A DNA stretch of 64,000 nt from a virus: positions 1 to 64,000 of the IMG/VR virus record IMGVR_UViG_3300049218_000295. One strand, given 5' to 3'. The notes beneath the pieces are model-generated. The model searched no databases. It worked only from the letters and a program-made list of their open reading frames with translations, and was not told the DNA's origin. Below are positions 2,311-57,468 of the stretch, piece after piece (position 1 is the stretch's first letter; each line of letters starts with the position of its first letter). The position numbers were made by a program, and so were the translations under genes.

Positions 2311-2339
2311 TTGACACTGTGTAGCACATATGATATAAT
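2311..2339 (+). promoter_or_regulatory. sigma-70 consensus promoter (early)
   Basis: TTGACA-17 bp-TATAAT with extended -10 TG, upstream of the ATG at 2362. Confidence 0.9.
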
Positions 2340-2361: not shown

Positions 2362-2946
2362 ATGATTTCAAGAAATACTCTCATAGGGTTTCACGGCCAG
2401 CAAGGTTCGGGCAAGTCCAAACTCACTACTTTCACAGCCTCACTTTTAGAGCAACAAGGGTATTCTGTAGGGCTTTATGGCATCAAAAGCACCTTTAGTT
2501 GTTACGCCGAGAAGATTGCCTCGGACCTAGGGATGGAGTGGAAGGCAGGAGGAAAGGACCTTCTGGCTTTTAAAGAGTTACAGAAAGCAATTTCGTGCTC
2601 CATTGAACTGCATTATAAGAAAAGCGCCTGGTCAGATTTATTCCGTGATCAAGTGCTGCAACAGCCTGAGACCCAGACCCTCATCGCCGACGACATGAGG
2701 ACACCAATGAATTTTGATGCCTTGGTCCAGATTTCAGAGCACCGGCCCGTGGTCCTTTTCCGATTGCTAGCCTCAGAAGAGATTCGTCGGAAGCGATGCT
2801 CGGCTTTCCGGGAAAATGCTGGCTACACTGAAGAACTACTTGAAAAGCCATCGAGCTTACCCACAAACTTCAACTGGTGGGATATTAACACTGAACTTCC
2901 GATTGAAGAAAGCTACGCGGCGATTAAGGCAGCTTTAGGAGTATGA
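2362..2946 (+). CDS. deoxynucleoside monophosphate kinase-like P-loop kinase
   Basis: GQQGSGKS Walker A and DDMR motif (cf. DxR of phage dNMP kinases); start moved to ATG 2362 because the called TTG is the -35 box. Confidence 0.65.
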   Translation: MISRNTLIGFHGQQGSGKSKLTTFTASLLEQQGYSVGLYGIKSTFSCYAEKIASDLGMEWKAGGKDLLAFKELQKAISCSIELHYKKSAWSDLFRDQVLQQPETQTLIADDMRTPMNFDALVQISEHRPVVLFRLLASEEIRRKRCSAFRENAGYTEELLEKPSSLPTNFNWWDINTELPIEESYAAIKAALGV

Positions 2947-3374
2947 AAGAGCTGGTTATACTTGTAGGACCCCCCGGTTCCGGAAAAACAACCTATTCTA
3001 AGGCATTTCTACCTAATCACCTGCATCTTAGCACCGATTATGGAGCCATCAAGCAAAAATTCAAAGATGGTCTAGCAACGGGAAAAGACATTGTTATCGA
3101 TAGAATGAACCCAACCAAAAAGCAACGTGCAGAGTATATTAAGCCTGCAATAGAGGCGGGCTACCATGTCCGCGCCGTGATGTTCAATACACCTAAACTA
3201 GAATGTCGGCGTCGCCTAGTTCTCAGGAAGGACCACCCAACTCTCGATAACAGAAGTATCCCACGCTTGCACATGGTATTAGCGTATTTCTACAAAGAGT
3301 TTGAAGAGGTTGATGAAATTCCTGTCACCTTCGTCGAACCAGAAAATCTTTCCACGGACCCAGACGCTCCATAG
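2943..3374 (+). CDS. AAA_33 / polynucleotide-kinase-like P-loop kinase
   Basis: GPPGSGKTT, IVIDRMNPTKKQR, CRRRLVLR lid. Confidence 0.7.
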   Translation: MKELVILVGPPGSGKTTYSKAFLPNHLHLSTDYGAIKQKFKDGLATGKDIVIDRMNPTKKQRAEYIKPAIEAGYHVRAVMFNTPKLECRRRLVLRKDHPTLDNRSIPRLHMVLAYFYKEFEEVDEIPVTFVEPENLSTDPDAP

Positions 3375-4545
3375 TAGAATTAAAATCCGTCGGCGGGTTC
3401 TGTTTGAGTTCCCAGTAAGGGTCGGCATGACCCTCACGTTCTTGCAGGTAGTACCTAAGTATCTCGGTGAGACACTCAGGGTTCTCGCGTAATTCTCCAA
3501 CCGCTCTTTCATGCGAATAAATTGTCTTGGACATCCCACGAGTTAACGACTTCAACCCATGATAAAGGTAAACCCACCCTTCCAGCATTTGCCTGTTGAT
3601 AATAGAGTTAGAAAGGTCCCTCAAGCCACGAGTGTCGGAGTTAGCCTCAAACGCGGTGAGCAGTGTTTTCTCCGCAATGGTGAAGGCCCCTTCTGCATTT
3701 TCGAAATCGATTGGGTTCACTTTATGAGGCATAGCTGAAGAACCAGCCTGTCCCGAGCTGGATTCGTATAGGAGCAATTTTCTTTGGCAGTGGTCCCATA
3801 GAGCACGTGCCAGTGCTCGCATCTTGACCGCAGTGGCCACCCCGGAAAGGAGTGTGGCTTCATTGCTCGGTCCAAGTTGCAACAGGCCATGTGTATCCGT
3901 TGGAGTTACAATCTGGACTCGTTCTAGCTGAGCGAGACGATAGGCGACCTTCTTTGACCAAGCCGTCGCCATGTCTTTGAAATCCGAAAGGCCGGAAATC
4001 AGCCTCAGCGCCGTCAGTTGACCATTAGAGCCCCCAAGTCGGTACTCGGGCAAGACTAGACCAATACGCCTGCATTTGGCACGTAGATAGGGGCCGATAA
4101 ACACTGGAGTCGCTGGCTGGCCATGGGTGTGAGCCAAAATGGCAACTGGAAGCTGCTTTTCATATTCGCGAATAGCTAGCTCCACTTCGCGGAGTAAATC
4201 ATTGATCATTAAGATGCAGAGGTGCACTTGCGTCCAACGAGCGTTGTGCATGATGTCCTCGGACGTCAGGCCGTAATGAAAAGAAACCTCCGGATAGTCT
4301 TCTTCTAGCACCTGGATCAGCGCAACCATTTGGTGCTTGGTGACCTGCTCTTTAACCGAAACTCGCTTAGCCAGAAGTTGGCGGTCCGGGTACATGGGCA
4401 AATGTAAGTCATTATTCAACACTTCTGCATAAGTCAAAGACCAGAGGGACATGAAGTATACAAAGTTTTCTTCCCCGACAATTGGAGAAAGCGCCGACAG
4501 CGAAGCTGCGTACCGACCATCGAGAACGGAAAAACTCACTGTCAC
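3325..4545 (-). CDS. purB: adenylosuccinate lyase
   Basis: LDGRY, HYGLTSEDI, THGQPATP and fumarate-lyase signature GSSAMPHKVNPIDFENAEG; true start may be GTG 4539. Confidence 0.92.
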   Translation of the reverse strand: MTVSFSVLDGRYAASLSALSPIVGEENFVYFMSLWSLTYAEVLNNDLHLPMYPDRQLLAKRVSVKEQVTKHQMVALIQVLEEDYPEVSFHYGLTSEDIMHNARWTQVHLCILMINDLLREVELAIREYEKQLPVAILAHTHGQPATPVFIGPYLRAKCRRIGLVLPEYRLGGSNGQLTALRLISGLSDFKDMATAWSKKVAYRLAQLERVQIVTPTDTHGLLQLGPSNEATLLSGVATAVKMRALARALWDHCQRKLLLYESSSGQAGSSAMPHKVNPIDFENAEGAFTIAEKTLLTAFEANSDTRGLRDLSNSIINRQMLEGWVYLYHGLKSLTRGMSKTIYSHERAVGELRENPECLTEILRYYLQEREGHADPYWELKQNPPTDFNSTMERLGPWKDFLVRRR

Positions 4546-4612
4546 TTTTACCTGATATACCCTGCTACCCTAGGCCATAAGAAAATCTTATATTACGACG
4601 CATAAAGTTAGT

Positions 4613-4685
4613 GGGGGCCACTGGGGAGCTAGGGTTTATGCTTTGCGCTGACCTTGGCAGAAGGTTCGATTCCTTCGGCCCCGCA
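4613..4685 (+). ncRNA. tRNA-like element, non-canonical, no assignable anticodon
   Basis: Perfect T arm GAAGG-TTCGATT-CCTTC (4660-4676) and acceptor-like stem GGGGCC/GGCCCC; D and anticodon arms irregular; no encoded CCA. Confidence 0.5.
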
Positions 4686-5225
4686 TTACAGCTTCAGCAA
4701 TGACTGAACAGGGTGCTGCAACTTTTTGCGGCCTTCTAAGGCTTCAAGTTCAATGAAGAAACGGTGCCCCAAGACCTTTGCTCCGGCCCTCTCGCAGATT
4801 AGTTCTACGGCATGCGCCGTGCCACCGGTAGCCAAAACATCGTCGATAATGATTACCCGGTCCCCCTTGGCCAAAGAGGTGGCGTGGACTTCCAGACAGT
4901 CATCCCCGTATTCGAGGTTATAGGCTTGCTTCAAGACTTCCCGAGGCAGTTTTCCGGGCTTCCGGGCAACCACCAGACCCACATGTCGGATTGCGGCTAT
5001 CGCGGCTCCCAAAATGAACCCTCTGGACTCGATGGCCACCAGCTTGTTGAAGTCGACTTGCATTGATTTGTTGATTTGGTGAATCAGGGACTGGTATGCA
5101 ATCGGGGTCTCGAGAATTGGTGTGATATCCCGGAAAGTGATTCCAGGCTTCGGGAAATCGGGGACGCTAATCAAAAGAGACTCTAAGTAGGCCGGTTGCC
5201 AGTAATTTTGTTCGGGAAACGTCAT
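4686..5225 (-). CDS. apt: adenine phosphoribosyltransferase
   Basis: PDFPKPGITFRDITP, ESRGF, RKPGKLP, YNLEYG, IIDDVLATGGT. Confidence 0.95.
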   Translation of the reverse strand: MTFPEQNYWQPAYLESLLISVPDFPKPGITFRDITPILETPIAYQSLIHQINKSMQVDFNKLVAIESRGFILGAAIAAIRHVGLVVARKPGKLPREVLKQAYNLEYGDDCLEVHATSLAKGDRVIIIDDVLATGGTAHAVELICERAGAKVLGHRFFIELEALEGRKKLQHPVQSLLKL

Positions 5226-51429: not shown

Positions 51430-52155
51430 TCAAACTGTGGGTGGCGCGACGACCTCGGTCACCGTAAATGGGCACTTGCTCCGTTCGTGCTCGAGCAAAC
51501 AGGCCCGGATATTCTTGAACCAAGAACGGGTGTTGTTGTCGTAATAGTAGCCGCGAGTCTTAGCCTCATCCTTGGTGTTGAAGTCTACTCCGGCGTGGAC
51601 TTTAATCATCGGATGACGAGCAAGTTCGATTGCAGCTTTAATATCGTAATGCGAGGCAATGTAGATGGTAGCCATCGAATCAAAAAGACCACGGTGGGCA
51701 AAGTCCAAGGTGTACCGGTGGTCTGCCGCCAAATACTTTAAAGCTCGCATTTTCATCTGCTCGGGATAGGCAAAATCCACCTGGGTGTCCACCCAGGGAA
51801 TTTGAGGCAATTCTCCGACAAGCGCCGTGTACTTTTGCTCAATCATAGCCTTATCGAGCGCAATTCCACCGTGGACGATGACAGCTACCGAGTGCCGAAG
51901 AAGCAGGCCGAGCCGCCCCAAGGCTTGGCCAAGGGGCACTCCAAAGGTTTCAAGCATCTTATCGTCGATACCTGTAAGTTCCGTGATTTCGGGTTTGAGC
52001 GGTGGACAGTTGGGGTCCTGATCATAAATAAGTTCACTTAGGAATGTCACCGGCTTGCGCGTCTCGACATTCCAAAGCACCGCTCCGACTTCGGTAATGC
52101 GGTCCGTGTTCGGGTCAAGGCCCGAAGTTTCTAGGTCCAGCGCTGTAACAAACAT
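51430..52155 (-). CDS. DEDDh 3'-5' exonuclease (DNA Pol III epsilon-like)
   Basis: LDLETSG, ITEVGAV, LTGI, WVDT, AHRGLFD. Confidence 0.88.
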   Translation of the reverse strand: MFVTALDLETSGLDPNTDRITEVGAVLWNVETRKPVTFLSELIYDQDPNCPPLKPEITELTGIDDKMLETFGVPLGQALGRLGLLLRHSVAVIVHGGIALDKAMIEQKYTALVGELPQIPWVDTQVDFAYPEQMKMRALKYLAADHRYTLDFAHRGLFDSMATIYIASHYDIKAAIELARHPMIKVHAGVDFNTKDEAKTRGYYYDNNTRSWFKNIRACLLEHERSKCPFTVTEVVAPPTV

Positions 52156-52385
52156 TAGATGGTGAAACCTTTGAAGCCGGTTTCATCATAATGAAAGTAT
52201 TCGGCCTCGTCAAATTCGTTCGGAGTAAGCGAGATGTTGGGTTGCGGCGGATAAAGCACCTGCAAAATGATATGCTTACCCTTCTCAACCACGGTATAGA
52301 GAGCCTCTTTATCACTCTTACAAATCAGAGTGTCGTCTTGGCTGATATTTTGAGCGGTTGCGGGCTTAGTGAAAGTTGCGGGCAT
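52155..52385 (-). CDS. hypothetical protein
   Basis: 76 aa, AGGAG RBS, TAATG-coupled to the next gene. Confidence 0.65.
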   Translation of the reverse strand: MPATFTKPATAQNISQDDTLICKSDKEALYTVVEKGKHIILQVLYPPQPNISLTPNEFDEAEYFHYDETGFKGFTI

Positions 52386-52397
52386 AATGCTTCTCCT

Positions 52398-53528
52398 TTA
52401 TTCGAGCCAAATATAATCTTCGTGGTCCGGGCCAGAGCCAATCATCGCAACGGGCAGTTCGGTAACTTCTTGCATCTTGTCCACATATTGACGCACACTC
52501 TTGTGCAAGTTGCGGTATTCTTTAATGCCACCACGAACCTTATAGGAAGACCAATCAATGTACTGTGGAAAGTTAAGAACGAGCTTGGTGGCCCCGCAGA
52601 AATCCGCAGAATCTTTAAGTAATTTCCAGGATGGGGTAAAGACTCGGCGAATCTTTTTGGTCACAGTGGTGCGCTCGCGCTCGGCCAGAATTGCAATTTC
52701 ACTCTCTGGCATACCAGCCTCACGTCCAACTTGCTCCCAGGTCAGCTCTTTTTGGTCGTCAAGAACATCACCCGAGTAACCAATTTGTTTGCCGTCGGCG
52801 TCAAAATTGGAACCCACCCGGATTGGGAAACTACGGACATTGAGATAGACGTCTCCTACCATTTCAGGTAGGATGCCGAAGTCAGCATACGCCTGTTGAG
52901 GCGTGCAATCGCGGAAAGTGCAATGCGGATAGTGTGTTCCGTAGTTGACAGAGAGAGCAAAACCTTGGGAAACTTCGTGCAGAAAAGTATGCATACTTGC
53001 AAACTCGGCGCGGACCGCTCGCATGAACGCCATTGGCTTGATAGCCCGTTCTGGGTTAACTCTGCCCCAGGTTTTGAGTTCTTGTCCACGCATAGCTTTA
53101 TCCGTAAAGGCGGCCCCACTGCCCGACATCGTGGAAGAAATATGTAGAGTAGATTGCGAACCGGTTGGTGACTCGGCCTCGATGTGGCGGTCCTCGACTA
53201 CAATGGCGCGTTCATGAATTTCGAGATCTTCAACTCTATAGCCTGTTTCTTCCAGCTCCTTATGAAGCTGCTTCATCTGGAAACCAGAATTTGGACCTAC
53301 CCAAAGTGTTGGGCGTTTGCCCACCAGTTTGGGTAAGATGGCTCCCGTTGGGAGCGCTTTGGCTACAAATTTCACTTCGCCCTTGAGAGCGGTGTGTCCG
53401 GCGTTCGGGAAATTGCCCGATGAGAGATTAGGGATATCAAAAATGTCTGCCAGACGACAGGACACGGCTCCCTTGGCCGAGCTTCCCCAGGCTGAATCAA
53501 CAATAGTGTTAAACTTTCCTTTTTGCAT
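52398..53528 (-). CDS. purZ: PurZ-type adenylosuccinate synthetase paralogue (N6-succino-2-amino-dAMP synthase)
   Basis: WGSSAKG (Ser replacing the PurA Asp), NFPNAGHT, YPHCTFRDCTP, PIRVG, DQKELTWEQ, TTVTKKIRRVF, LNFPQY replacing TKLD. Confidence 0.85.
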   Translation of the reverse strand: MQKGKFNTIVDSAWGSSAKGAVSCRLADIFDIPNLSSGNFPNAGHTALKGEVKFVAKALPTGAILPKLVGKRPTLWVGPNSGFQMKQLHKELEETGYRVEDLEIHERAIVVEDRHIEAESPTGSQSTLHISSTMSGSGAAFTDKAMRGQELKTWGRVNPERAIKPMAFMRAVRAEFASMHTFLHEVSQGFALSVNYGTHYPHCTFRDCTPQQAYADFGILPEMVGDVYLNVRSFPIRVGSNFDADGKQIGYSGDVLDDQKELTWEQVGREAGMPESEIAILAERERTTVTKKIRRVFTPSWKLLKDSADFCGATKLVLNFPQYIDWSSYKVRGGIKEYRNLHKSVRQYVDKMQEVTELPVAMIGSGPDHEDYIWLE

Positions 53529-53982
53529 TTTGGCTCCTAGGTCCTTTTTTAGGGTGTTGTGACTTTGCGCGAATAAGTTCTTCTTCCAAGGCGCGAAAAG
53601 AGTAGGATTCGAAACTGCGTGATATTGGAAGCTTTTTCTCTCCTACAGTACCGCCCGCTAGAGACGCATCCCAAGCTCGACGTAAGTCGCCAAGCGTGAA
53701 AAGCGTCGGCTCATGGTCTGGCGAATTTTCTGCCGGGGTTCTACCATGATTAAATGCGTCCATCATCTGCTCTTTTAGTTTCCTGGAATACCTCTTGTGG
53801 AGTTCTGGAAATCTTTTGCGGACACGCATAATAAGTTCATGCACCCGCTCTTCGGTGGAAGTCGCGGGCGGAACAAACCCATCAGTAAGACTGTCCATTT
53901 CGTCAAGGAGCATCCACATCCAGCGGATTAGAATATGCTCGCGGTCGGTCTTGGCGGCAAATTCACTTTTCCGTAACTTCAA
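53509..53982 (-). CDS. hypothetical protein
   Basis: 157 aa ORF overlapping the purZ start. Confidence 0.55.
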   Translation of the reverse strand: MKLRKSEFAAKTDREHILIRWMWMLLDEMDSLTDGFVPPATSTEERVHELIMRVRKRFPELHKRYSRKLKEQMMDAFNHGRTPAENSPDHEPTLFTLGDLRRAWDASLAGGTVGEKKLPISRSFESYSFRALEEELIRAKSQHPKKGPRSQNAKRKV

Positions 53983-54427
53983 TCTTCACCCCCGTGGGCA
54001 CGATTCCTGTCTTTTGGATTTTCAGAGTCAAAACGCCGCGCCGAAGTGTTGCCAGACACATTTTGGCATCAATCTGTTGTGGTAGCTCGTAGTCGTGCTT
54101 TTCCTTGGTTGCAGCCTTAGATACTGCGATCCGAACTTTATTTGCAAACACACGGACTTCGAGGTCTGTTGGAGCAATCCCAGGAACTGGGATTTCCAGC
54201 ACATAATGCTCAGTCTCAGTTTTCAGCGTCCCGGTCCAATTCTTGCTGGACTTGTCTCCGGTATTCCAATTGATAGTGGAAGTTGACGACTTAAAAATTG
54301 GGTCGAACCCCTCAAAAATTTGCGCCGCGCCTTCAGCCAATTCTTCGGTGCCTTTGGCCAAATCTTCTCCCATTTTGCGGAAATCCTCGCCCATTTTGCG
54401 GAAATCCTTAAACATGTCCTTCATCAA
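53963..54427 (-). CDS. small heat-shock protein (Hsp20/alpha-crystallin)
   Basis: YVLEIPVPGI...LEVRV...YELPQQID...ATLRRGVLTLKI. Confidence 0.85.
   Translation of the reverse strand: MMKDMFKDFRKMGEDFRKMGEDLAKGTEELAEGAAQIFEGFDPIFKSSTSTINWNTGDKSSKNWTGTLKTETEHYVLEIPVPGIAPTDLEVRVFANKVRIAVSKAATKEKHDYELPQQIDAKMCLATLRRGVLTLKIQKTGIVPTGVKIEVTEK
54369..54408. repeat. 21-nt-period tandem duplication (DFRKMGE x2) in the hsp20 N-terminus
   Basis: cccattttgcggaaatcct at 54369 and 54390. Confidence 0.8.
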
Positions 54428-54773
54428 GTGGTCCCTTCATACTTAGTGCATAAAGCACTGTCTTACAAACTTTTCTATTGCCTTCGTCAATCCATTGGGT
54501 ATCACCATGCTGCTGGACCGCCGAAGTGCCGACCGAATAAATCGCGAACTGTTCTCTGCCAATCAGGATATCCTTATTCTTGGGTTCATTGGGACCCAGA
54601 GCAGCTAAGGATTCACGTAGTTCTGCTTCTTTGCTGGTAAATTCGACTTCGGTTCCCACCGAACGAATCCACCGACTGAACCACTTTTGAGCCTCTTCAG
54701 GCTCTGCAATTTCGCACAATTCTTTAATGCACTGTTGCAGGATTTGTTCGGGCGTTTTCCGTTCACTAGACAT
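54408..54773 (-). CDS. hypothetical protein
   Basis: 121 aa ORF. Confidence 0.6.
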   Translation of the reverse strand: MSSERKTPEQILQQCIKELCEIAEPEEAQKWFSRWIRSVGTEVEFTSKEAELRESLAALGPNEPKNKDILIGREQFAIYSVGTSAVQQHGDTQWIDEGNRKVCKTVLYALSMKGPLDEGHV

Positions 54774-54795: not shown

Positions 54796-56490
54796 TCATC
54801 CGTGGCAGGCAGCGCATTCTTCCTTTGAACGGGAAGCCAAGTCGCCCTTCAAAACCCCTTCAGTACGGAGATAGTAGAGCGTTTTCAAACCGGCCTCCCA
54901 GGCTGCAATATGAACCTCGTGAATGTACTTGGCGCTAGAATTGCTAGCGAAAAAGAGGTTCAAGCTCTGAGCTTGGTCGATGTGTTTCTGACGCTGAGCC
55001 GCTTGCTTTACCAAGGCATGCTGATTGATTTCGCGAGCGGTCAGAAATACCTCGCGTTCCTGGTCCGTAAGAAAAGCCAAATGCTGCACTGAACCCGATT
55101 GCGCATTAATGGTTTTCCAGACTTCGGTCGTGTTCTTGCCGTAGGCTTCAAGAACTTCAAGTAGTTTGGGGTTCTTACGGATGAAAGTACCTTTGGCCGA
55201 CTTCTGAGAGAAAACGTTGGCCGGGAGCGGCTCAATTCCTGCACTGTGACCACCGGAAATGGTGGAATTGGATACAGTCGGAGCCACAGCAAGCAAGTGT
55301 GTATTGCGACGACCAAAGCCCTTACACCACTCGGGTTCGCCCATCTCTTTTGCCAATTCTGCTGTTGCCTTTTCAGCTTTGTCGCGCATCGTTTTGAAAA
55401 CAAGATTGTTGAGCATCATGGCATCAAAGGAGTCAAAAGGCATCATATTGTTTTGGAGAAGAGTGTGCCAGCCGAGAACACCAATTCCAATGGCCCGACC
55501 CTTGACCGCAGAGCGCAGGCTGTTTTCAAGGCCCGGTTTGCCTTTAGCTTTCAAGATGTACTCGTCAAGAACAGCATCGAGAAAACGAACTGCGGTCTCG
55601 ACCAAGTCTGTATCTCTCCATTCGTTCCAACGAACAAGGTTGAGCGAGGAAAGACAACAAACGAATGAATGCTGGCCGTCCGTATAAAGAGTGATTTCGG
55701 TGCAAATATTGCTGGTGCGGACGCGGAGGTCGTGTTTGGCATAGCAGTCAGGGTTGGCTCGGTTCACATTGTCCGAGAAAAAGAGATAGGGCTCCCCAGT
55801 AGTCACCCTAGCGTCAAGAACATCTAACCAAATTTTCCTTTTGCTAGAATCTCCATCCAACATCTCCTTCATCCATTTATCGCTAATGCACACTCCGTGG
55901 TTGGTATTCAAACAGCGCCGATTCATGTCGCCCGTCGGGCGGCGAATGTTAATGAATTCGTCAATATCTAGATGGTCAATATCTAAATAGAGTGCCGAGG
56001 CCGCGCCTCGAGTTTTTCCTTGTTTCACCGAGTGGGTAGTGGAATCGTAAACTTTTGCCCAGGGAATCACGCCTTCGGACTCGCCATTACCCGCAACTTG
56101 CTTACCGCGACCACGAATATCACCTAGATAGACACCAACGCCCGCGCCATTCTTAGAAAGCATAGCGAGTTCGTGATTCTTCTGAAAGATGCTGTCAATA
56201 CTATCCTCAACGTGAATCGAATTGCAGGAAATGGGCAAGCCGCGAGAGGTTCCCATGTTGGAAAGGATGGGCGAGGCCGGACACAGCCAATTTTTCCACA
56301 TGGCATCGAAGTACTTCTTTTCCCAAACTTTCGGTTCTTTGGAATAACTCGCAGCAGCTTTAGCCACGCGTTTGTACATGCCACGGGGAGTCTCGCCATC
56401 AAGTAGGTAGCCACCCTGTAAGGTCGCTAGTCCTGGTTCGTCAAGCCACACGGGGGCCTCATTGGCCTGCTTCAATTCATCAAGTATCAT
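54796..56490 (-). CDS. nrdA: class I ribonucleotide reductase alpha subunit, no ATP cone
   Basis: ISC, SNICTEI, CCLSSLN, APTVSNS, KTLYYLR, C-terminal CAAC. Confidence 0.95.
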   Translation of the reverse strand: MILDELKQANEAPVWLDEPGLATLQGGYLLDGETPRGMYKRVAKAAASYSKEPKVWEKKYFDAMWKNWLCPASPILSNMGTSRGLPISCNSIHVEDSIDSIFQKNHELAMLSKNGAGVGVYLGDIRGRGKQVAGNGESEGVIPWAKVYDSTTHSVKQGKTRGAASALYLDIDHLDIDEFINIRRPTGDMNRRCLNTNHGVCISDKWMKEMLDGDSSKRKIWLDVLDARVTTGEPYLFFSDNVNRANPDCYAKHDLRVRTSNICTEITLYTDGQHSFVCCLSSLNLVRWNEWRDTDLVETAVRFLDAVLDEYILKAKGKPGLENSLRSAVKGRAIGIGVLGWHTLLQNNMMPFDSFDAMMLNNLVFKTMRDKAEKATAELAKEMGEPEWCKGFGRRNTHLLAVAPTVSNSTISGGHSAGIEPLPANVFSQKSAKGTFIRKNPKLLEVLEAYGKNTTEVWKTINAQSGSVQHLAFLTDQEREVFLTAREINQHALVKQAAQRQKHIDQAQSLNLFFASNSSAKYIHEVHIAAWEAGLKTLYYLRTEGVLKGDLASRSKEECAACHG

Positions 56491-56505
56491 GCTGAGATTT
56501 GCTCC

Positions 56506-57468
56506 CTACGCATTAAAAACCTCCAGCCAATTTTTGGTTCCTTTGGCATAATCACTGACGCGGCTCGCGAAAAAATCACTGTGCGAGACGCCGCCCGAGA
56601 GCACATCAAACCAGTCCATGTTAAGGAGTAACGCCTTATCAATATTGGTCCACTTCGATTTCAGACCCAGGTCGTGCAGCTTCGTGTTGCAGCGGAAGCG
56701 GATGAAAGCCTTGAGGTCCTTAACCGACAGTCCTTCCACCGGGCCGAGTTCGAATGCTTTGTCGATGAAAGCGTCTTCGAGGGCGATAGTGAGCTTGGCA
56801 GCGTCGTAAATTTCACCTTTTAGCTCGTCGGTCCACACTTCTGGATATTCCGCGATAAACTGCTTAAATAACCGACAACCTGCTTCCGAGTGGAGCGATT
56901 CGTCCTTGATACTGAACGCGATGATTTGCCCCAGGCTCTTCATTTTGTTAAAGCGCGAAAAGTTGAGTAAGACTGCAAAGGAAGAGAAGAGGTTCACGCC
57001 TTCATTGAAGGCGGAGAAGATGGCGATAGAGCGAGCGATTTCTTGTTTCGTTTTGCCTTTGGTTTCGATTAGCCTATCGATTTTGGCTTTGGCCGTCGGC
57101 TCGTGAAGGAACGCCGAAAAGTCCTCGAGACCGAGCGATTGATTGAGGTAGGCATAAGAAACTGCGTGTACGGACTCCATAGAGCCAAATGCCGCCGCCA
57201 TCATCTGAATTTCAGGCTTTTTGAACCATTTGGCCACCATCTGGGTCCAGTACTCTTGGATGAAGATTTCAGACTGCGTGAAACCCTTCAGGATGTTGCC
57301 AATAACGGAACGCTCAGCATCGGTGAGCTTGGTCTTCCAATCATTGATGTCATCCGACATCGCGATTTCAGTATGAAGCCAGTGCGACTGCTGCTGCTGC
57401 TCCCAGTAAGTGTAGGCCCAATCGTACTCAAAAGGGCTATAGGTAGCTCTAGGAGTTAATAACGGCAT
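56506..57468 (-). CDS. nrdB: class I ribonucleotide reductase beta subunit
   Basis: PFEY, ESVHAVSY, EGVNLFSSF, DESLH, DFF...Y. Confidence 0.95.
   Translation of the reverse strand: MPLLTPRATYSPFEYDWAYTYWEQQQQSHWLHTEIAMSDDINDWKTKLTDAERSVIGNILKGFTQSEIFIQEYWTQMVAKWFKKPEIQMMAAAFGSMESVHAVSYAYLNQSLGLEDFSAFLHEPTAKAKIDRLIETKGKTKQEIARSIAIFSAFNEGVNLFSSFAVLLNFSRFNKMKSLGQIIAFSIKDESLHSEAGCRLFKQFIAEYPEVWTDELKGEIYDAAKLTIALEDAFIDKAFELGPVEGLSVKDLKAFIRFRCNTKLHDLGLKSKWTNIDKALLLNMDWFDVLSGGVSHSDFFASRVSDYAKGTKNWLEVFNA

Follow-up and report, generated by a model that had tools for sequence, protein, structure and literature searches.

The first 64 kb of a linear IMG/VR virus record of 168,948 bp (IMGVR_UViG_3300049218_000295; this 64-kb stretch is hereafter the window) come from a large (jumbo-class) phage that encodes its own adenylosuccinate lyase, PurB, next to ORF1 (open reading frame 1), a P-loop protein of the nucleoside monophosphate (NMP) kinase fold, together with a PurZ-type synthetase of the nucleotide pathway for the DNA base Z (2-aminoadenine, 2,6-diaminopurine). 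In the pathway described for phiVC8, S-2L and SH-Ab 15497, PurZ converts deoxyguanylate (dGMP) to N6-succino-2-amino-2'-deoxyadenylate (dSMP), bacterial PurB converts dSMP to the Z deoxynucleoside monophosphate (dZMP), and Gmk and Ndk act next. We find that the lyase and the kinase-fold protein of the window belong to a conserved gene pair, and that phage-borne PurB proteins co-occur with synthetases of the PurA/PurZ family. These findings raise the possibility, to which we assign a probability of about 50%, that the phage's own PurB and then its own kinase carry the PurZ route onward. The three genes in question are as follows.

2362..2946, plus strand: ORF1, a 194-residue P-loop protein and candidate (deoxy)NMP kinase; NMP-kinase fold, P-loop GQQGSGKS
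3325..4545, minus strand: PurB, a divergent adenylosuccinate lyase; Lyase_1 and ASL_C domains, motifs complete
52398..53528, minus strand: PurZ-type succinoaminodeoxyadenylate synthetase, the presumed upstream partner of PurB; Ser in place of Asp13 of PurA

A divergent adenylosuccinate lyase with complete motifs

A preliminary description of this DNA had placed purB, apt and two P-loop genes in the window and had called purB divergent yet motif-complete. All four genes lie where it put them, and its view of purB is borne out. In particular, the protein matches PF00206 (E = 3e-12) and PF08328 (E = 1e-7), its best matches in the PDB are all adenylosuccinate lyases, and it retains the DGRY, H..TSEDI, THGQPATP and GSSAMPHKVNP motifs. 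Across 37 members of its clade the motifs for catalysis and nucleotide binding do not vary, and as judged by these motifs the window PurB appears catalytically complete. With the E. coli/Bacteroidota-type lyases (PDB 2PTR and 7T24) it has in common the pair of domains, the GSSxMPHKVNP signature loop with the catalytic Ser, the general-acid His of THGQ, and the H..TSEDI, DGRY and RDLS..NR motifs; unlike them it is shorter by ~50 residues, is at most 30% identical to any cellular PurB, and scores far under the equivalog cut-offs of NCBIfam (128 bits against a cut-off of 446 for NF006764, and 109 against 326 for TIGR00928). By its sequence, then, the window PurB is a divergent member of the family and no ordinary orthologue.

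The clade to which it belongs comprises ~42 metagenomic proteins that are 39–100% identical to the window protein, below which there is a gap to the cellular PurBs (118 bits or less, 30% identity or less). In a tree of PurB proteins the clade is monophyletic, and a long stem branch (1.57 substitutions per site) leads to it within the E. coli/Bacteroidota-type half. Three positions that are invariant in cellular PurBs and in the PurBs partnered with Asp-type synthetases (see below) are altered in the clade, namely E to S (36), T to N (101) and K to R (169); this comparison is a weak one, in that the cellular set is narrow (mostly Bacteroidota-like) and one column conflicted with a HMMER alignment to a gammaproteobacterial lyase. 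Searches of IMG/VR with single-protein patterns for PurB gave no matches, and distant PurBs surfaced by profile search only. PurB matches in 'Microcystis phage MaAM05' and 'Acinetobacter phage MD-2021a' were discarded, as these sequences resemble bacterial DNA (metG, glgX, rpoD). In the former (GenBank MW495066.1, 189–200 kb), purB lies amid metG, mtaB, nikR and glgX in what looks like a bacterial chromosome.

PurB is paired with a protein of the NMP-kinase fold

ORF1 had no match in Pfam, PHROG or NCBIfam, and an exhaustive HMMER search recovered a small family of ~35 clusters. Among 37 homologues, residues K18, R113, R142 and R145 never vary, and the family conserves, fully or almost fully, the P-loop Lys, a DD-x-R motif and three lid arginines. 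An AlphaFold2 model of ORF1 (predicted local distance difference test score, 96) has the NMP-kinase fold. Compared with T4 deoxynucleoside monophosphate (dNMP) kinase (1DEK), the model gave a Z score of 15.0 over 167 residues, with the lowest root-mean-square deviation (2.4 A) and the highest identity (20%), and the look-alikes of ORF1 in the Atlas are mostly viral clusters of the DNMK or phosphomevalonate kinase type. Homologues of ORF1 scored 16–19 bits, below threshold, against the DNMK profile, and PF21448 had no match in the genome. ORF1 and the T4 enzyme (gp1; Pfam DNMK) are both phage-encoded and share the P-loop NMP-kinase fold, whereas gp1 has 241 residues against the 194 of ORF1 and shows no profile-level likeness to it beyond the P-loop. 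The label 'dNMP-kinase-like', which the preliminary description had attached to this gene, would accordingly hold for the modelled fold and for that level only.

An ORF1-family gene directly adjoins the clade PurB gene in all six informative contexts, and the lyase and the kinase therefore constitute a conserved gene pair. In three contigs the two genes point the same way, overlapping by 4 nt in one and separated by 14 and 23 nt in the others; in the window and in two relatives they converge.

Two hits of the ORF1 family (P0252 and P0256, 379–400 residues) were called as fusions that carry N-terminal HNH_3 and AP2 domains (homing endonuclease), which suggests mobile-element activity at ORF1-family loci.

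The record encodes a PurZ-type synthetase

A Ser in place of the catalytic Asp13 of PurA is a criterion for PurZ (PMC12884076), and the residue roles that define PurZ have been set out in two reports (bioRxiv 10.1101/2025.10.22.683976 and PMC12884076). The synthetase of the window has Ser at this position (S16), together with W264 and with F320 and Y323, which correspond to F295 and Y298 of VpPurZ; its motifs are WGSSAKG, TTVTKK, ELTWEQ and LNFxxY (LNFPQY). S16 and F320/Y323 are invariant in 32 family members, and the hallmark motifs do not vary within a metagenomic family that numbers more than 100 proteins. Among the structures of the PDB, phiVC8 PurZ matches best and archaeal PurA comes after it; in NCBIfam the highest-scoring family is that of PurZ (NF038379; 180 bits, under the cut-off of 300). 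Complete huge phages (360–436 kb) that carry a PurZ of the same family also carry YfbR-like (DatZ-type) and PolA genes. In the window, the PurZ gene lies beside those for ribonucleotide reductase (RNR), given here as context.

54796..57468, minus strand: class I RNR, large and small subunits

Three small minus-strand ORFs flank the PurZ gene (52155–52385, 53509–53982 and 54408–54773), one of which, of 157 residues, overlaps the start of PurZ by 20 nt. They had no match in Pfam, PHROG, NCBIfam or the Atlas and no homologue in related loci, and are candidates for unrecognised enzymes that clear dATP or dGTP. At two other PurZ loci (L108, in record G022, and L121, in G030) the reading frames are overlong (688–821 residues in G022), the N-terminal P-loop is not at the expected place, and a GTHSYLANG.V/I.HNT motif precedes the point at which PurZ sequence resumes; the insertion looks like an intein within PurZ.

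Phage PurBs co-occur with PurA/PurZ-family synthetases

The co-occurrence set consisted of 38 PurB-bearing IMG/VR records, each of which was searched whole. A synthetase gene (PF00709) is present in 29 of these 38 records, and in 11 of the 12 that are at least 90% complete. By comparison, none of 13 RNR-bearing phage records that served as controls has such a gene (Fisher p = 1e-6), and the background frequency of PF00709 is ~0.9% of NCBI viruses. The controls are viral records picked by similarity to the window RNR and have neither PurB nor a PF00709 gene; a search of seven of them for DnaB found none with a close DnaB, and they accordingly serve as controls and not as close kin. Among the partner synthetases, 13 have Asp at the catalytic position (true PurA) and ~16 have Ser. 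Taken in the reverse direction, of 50 records that encode a Ser-type synthetase, 12 have PurB.

The genes for PurB and the synthetase lie within 1.5 kb of each other in 9 of 13 Asp-type pairs; of the 24 Ser-type pairs, 5 are that close and 10 are separated by 5 kb or less, and in jumbo genomes, that of the window included, the two genes are tens of kb apart. Two phage isolates carry both genes, namely Streptomyces phage Galactica, in which GenBank annotates them as PurA-like and PurB-like (synthetase motif GSEAKG), and Flavobacterium phage MaF61 (GSSGKG). In the PurB tree, the PurBs with Ser-type partners fall in three or more distinct positions, each well supported, which indicates that such lyases have been acquired repeatedly and suggests recurrent selection for the pairing.

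Two metagenomic contigs, each with a deep member of the clade, bear on the clade of the window PurB in particular. The first (L204, 126 kb) encodes on one strand PolA, a Ser-type synthetase, a Tmk-like kinase, RNR, dCMP deaminase, an RNase T-like exonuclease and PurB, the last at 7.5 kb from the synthetase. The second (L205, 116 kb) has the same layout from the PF00709 gene onward, with PurB ~9 kb away; its PF00709 gene is cut at the end of the locus with the Ser/Asp position unread, and PolA was not in the stretch that was fetched. The window RNR is 55–60% identical to the RNRs of these two contigs, whereas the window PurZ is only 28% identical to the L204 synthetase, from which it follows that this lineage kept PurB and RNR and exchanged the PurZ subfamily. 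Such a pattern would be expected if PurB serves whichever PurZ is present.

The Tmk-like gene lies directly downstream of the synthetase gene in both contigs (L204, 2607–3224; L205, 374–991; the Ser-type is confirmed in L204 only) and is a candidate for a second, unrelated phage dZMP kinase. Six IMG/VR records (G051–G056; 149–152 kb, complete, with terminal repeats) encode a very divergent Ser-type PF00709 protein of ~488 residues (AGSSGKG; 30 bits to Pfam) at 1.9 kb from a long-branch PurB, and these genes may represent a further independent synthetase–lyase cassette. In four others (G059, G065, G066 and G068), PurB has as its neighbour a short (349–374 residues), weak-scoring PurA-family protein that keeps Asp (GDEGKG or GDSGKG); such proteins may be intermediate between archaeal-type PurA and PurZ.

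Proposed pathway

The pathway that we propose runs as follows. PurB of the window phage would remove fumarate from dSMP, the PurZ product, to give dZMP, and ORF1 would phosphorylate the product of the lyase to the diphosphate; it is the conserved pairing of the two genes that leads us to read the kinase as acting on what the lyase makes. The steps after PurZ would in this way be independent of host PurB and host Gmk, and PurB may still accept adenylosuccinate and phosphoribosylaminoimidazole succinocarboxamide (SAICAR). The substrates of the two enzymes, and the production of Z-DNA by the window phage, are what we infer. That the phage has its own lyase for the PurZ product, as was proposed in the preliminary description, is backed at the sequence level by the co-occurrence and adjacency of phage PurBs and PurA/PurZ-family synthetases, and its proposal of a kinase acting after the lyase is likewise backed by the PurB–kinase pair.

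In a more far-reaching version, which we advance tentatively and hold to be somewhat doubtful, PurB would be an unrecognised and recurrently acquired fourth component of the Z cluster; here it would be paired with a new family of the NMP-kinase fold in a cassette specialised for the 2-amino-deoxy substrate, one that would make the route from dGMP to the Z deoxynucleoside diphosphate (dZDP) autonomous to the phage and would outlast exchange of the PurZ subfamily.

Several observations weigh against the proposed pathway. The PurZ gene is 47.9 kb from PurB, close to the ~47 kb noted at the outset, and the two are in different transcription units. PurB is missing from 38 of the 50 PurZ-type records and is therefore dispensable, an accessory and not a core component; indeed, the complete 160.7-kb record whose PurZ is closest to that of the window (G001) is without PurB. 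No DatZ/YfbR-like, HD_3, PF04447, MazG/MazZ, dUTPase/DutZ or PolA gene was found in the 169-kb record, which CheckV estimates to be ~66% complete, a scope that applies to every negative for this record; Z-DNA is therefore only a putative feature of the window phage. Searches of the same record for the genes that accompany PurZ in Z clusters (DatZ, MazZ/DUF550, DutZ and DpoZ), with the profiles PF12917, PF13023, PF04447, PF03819, PF00692 and PF00476, gave no match, and neither an NDP kinase, a dATPase nor a dGTP/dATP pyrophosphatase was found there. Given these three absences, and the many PurZ-type records that have no PurB, 'self-contained' and 'autonomous', the terms that had been applied to the module, were overstatements. 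In most of the contigs from Logan/ENA that carry a clade PurB, the presence of PurZ could be read from 10-kb flanks only. For ORF1, hhalign against T4 gp1 aligned the P-loop alone (probability 13%), and many other small-molecule kinases lie within ~2–3 Z units among its fold neighbours. Host PurB, moreover, is sufficient in the characterised Z systems, and the adjacency of the genes for adenine phosphoribosyltransferase (APRT), PurB and the kinase is also compatible with a simple theme of AMP metabolism.

Competing explanations

Three further features of the region enter into the comparison with other explanations.

2311..2339, plus strand: sigma-70 promoter, TTGACA-17 nt-TGnTATAAT, driving ORF1 and the AAA_33 gene; 12 of 12 matches and the extended -10 TG
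2943..3374, plus strand: AAA_33 P-loop kinase of 143 residues; Pfam AAA_33, E = 1e-14
4686..5225, minus strand: APRT, canonical type I; NF002636 201 bits, cut-off 125

The main rival, which we regard as rather unlikely, is an adenylate-supply island unrelated to PurZ, in which APRT (adenine to AMP), PurB (adenylosuccinate made by the host to AMP, and SAICAR to phosphoribosylaminoimidazole carboxamide, or AICAR) and the kinase (AMP to ADP) would boost ATP in the course of infection. Each of the three enzymes could be one that forms or uses AMP, and PurB lies 47.9 kb from PurZ. AMP-synthesis cassettes do exist in phages, as evidenced by the 13 records that pair PurB with a genuine Asp-type PurA. 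The APRT, moreover, is canonical: it has the PRPP (phosphoribosyl pyrophosphate)-binding loop VIIIDDVLATGGT and matches a bacterial APRT in the PDB (4M0K, E = 3e-43), and an APRT gene adjoins that for RNR in a complete genome of the Kyanoviridae (a cyanophage) that has neither PurZ nor any other PF00709 gene. However, the only PurA-family gene in the 169-kb record is the Ser-type one, and in the absence of an Asp-type PurA the PurB of such an island would need host PurA, contrary to the rule that phage PurBs keep company with a phage synthetase. Nor is APRT kept with PurB past the closest relative: it adjoins PurB in that relative only (L202, whose APRT is 58% identical) and is absent from all other clade PurB contexts examined, L204 and L205 among them. 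Furthermore, in L204 a PurB of this same clade is clustered with a Ser-type synthetase, and L205 has the same layout, although the type of its PF00709 gene is unread. On the proposed pathway, APRT would be an addition peculiar to this lineage, turning adenine into AMP, and it is as such, an enzyme of general adenine salvage, that we read it.

Quite improbable, in our judgement, is a second alternative, namely that the ORF1-family protein is some other small-molecule or regulatory P-loop enzyme and no nucleotide kinase, its pairing with PurB reflecting another function. The family lacks any family-level sequence match, and the best match of the model found by VIA-align is an animal-type phosphomevalonate kinase (Z 16.3), with the many kinase classes mentioned above close behind. 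This explanation has to contend with the P-loop Lys, the D-x-R motif and the three lid arginines, which vary little or not at all, as in NMP kinases, with T4 dNMP kinase as the structure of lowest deviation and highest identity, with the viral DNMK clusters among the Atlas neighbours, and with the tight coupling of the gene to that of a nucleotide lyase.

The remaining alternative is the full four-gene Z module, in which APRT would salvage free 2,6-diaminopurine and the second kinase would join in the phosphorylation of dZ nucleotides. APRTs in general accept 2,6-diaminopurine. PurZ0 phages are known to salvage the Z base through a different enzyme, DmtZ (PMC12884076), and a single consensus promoter precedes the two P-loop genes, whose translation is coupled, but we hold this module to be the least probable of the explanations considered, since no APRT above the family cut-off was found in the 50 PurZ-type records, the product of APRT would be the ribonucleotide ZMP rather than dZMP, and the AAA_33 protein has its best alignments with 5'-OH kinases of RNA/DNA and no counterpart in L202, a relative that is otherwise syntenic. 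The placing of APRT in the Z module thus finds no support, APRT also being found beside RNR in the cyanophage without PurZ.

The second P-loop gene had likewise been counted in the Z module, a reading from which we depart, since by its best matches the protein is no nucleotide kinase. The AAA_33 protein matches the polynucleotide kinase (PNK) region of TIGR01663 (E = 2e-9), and its best solved relatives are 9DRZ and 9D8A (E = 1.4e-9 for 9DRZ) and the kinase domain of mammalian PNKP (residues 222–345); 9DRZ and 9D8A are stand-alone RNA 5'-OH kinases of Mucorales (PMC11571804). The alignment with these enzymes covers ~110 residues, among them the P-loop, the catalytic Asp after strand 2, the IDxxN motif (IDR-N) and the lid with its Arg residues (R..R..HPT), which are the motifs of PNK; unlike them, the AAA_33 protein is a phage protein of 143 residues without a phosphatase or ligase domain. 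We read it as a probable polynucleotide kinase, one that would act on 5'-OH ends in nucleic-acid repair and that merely shares the promoter of ORF1.

Relation to known systems

The chemistry proposed here for the window PurB is that of the host PurB step of phiVC8, S-2L and SH-Ab 15497, in which a lyase of the fumarate lyase superfamily acts after a Ser-type PurA homologue. The difference lies in the source of the lyase, which in those systems comes from the host and in the window from the phage itself, as a member of a separate and highly divergent clade of phage lyases. The PurA(Asp)–PurB cassettes of metagenomic phages likewise consist of a phage-borne synthetase and lyase, usually adjacent; their synthetases, however, still have the catalytic Asp (GDEGKG) and would be expected to produce AMP, whereas that of the window is Ser-type. 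A salvage route to dZMP by DmtZ/DutZ, with a deoxyribose-5-phosphate transferase of the NDT family, has been described in PurZ0 phages (PMC12884076). There too, Z-phages have added nucleotide-metabolism enzymes of their own around PurZ through independent acquisitions, but the enzymes and the chemistry differ from those of the window, in whose record no dUTPase was found.

The literature of 2021–2026 that we searched uniformly gives the lyase and monophosphate kinase steps to the host, and in it, the original 2021 Science papers being outside its scope, no phage PurB, phage dZMP kinase or phage APRT is mentioned. Were phages to prove recurrent carriers of a PurB of their own, and in this case of a dedicated kinase as well, the Z pathway would be more portable than has been thought; host range may be less limited by the purine enzymes of the host, and the minimal gene set for heterologous Z-DNA could gain enzymes that evolved for Z intermediates. 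The co-occurrence of PurB with a synthetase provides a simple genomic marker, and the cultured phages Galactica and MaF61 allow a direct test of this rule.

Promoter, gene layout and genome context

The promoter upstream of ORF1 had been described as a consensus early promoter. The consensus is confirmed, and 'early' is a probable attribute that follows from the type of promoter. Six perfect extended -10 promoters (TTGACA-17/18-TGnTATAAT) occur in the 168,948 bp, against ~0.004 expected by chance, at genome positions 2311 (+), 16130 (+), 20771 (-), 116164 (+), 168732 (-) and 168837 (+). Together they look like a small regulon for unmodified host sigma-70, and the genes behind them are probably the earliest-expressed class. 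A TTG at 2311 was considered as a start for a longer ORF1 and rejected, this TTG being part of the -35 hexamer TTGACA; the homologue of ORF1 in a relative begins at the residue equivalent to ATG 2362. ORF1 and the AAA_33 gene overlap by ATGA, and the AAA_33 gene is convergent with the 3' end of purB, with which it overlaps by 50 nt.

Between purB and apt lies a tRNA-like element (4609–4686, plus strand), for which neither ARAGORN nor Rfam gave a call. It consists of an acceptor-type stem of 6–7 bp, a long central hairpin and a canonical T arm (GAAGG-TTCGATT-CCTTC) that is followed by GGCCCCGCA, and has a folding energy of -36 kcal/mol (z = -2.3).

A blastn search with the 3-kb region against GenBank phages found no close relatives. 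Elsewhere in the window, portal and large terminase genes are present at 9.7–14.5 kb, and other genes encode DnaB, an NAD-ligase and ClpP in addition to the class I RNR.

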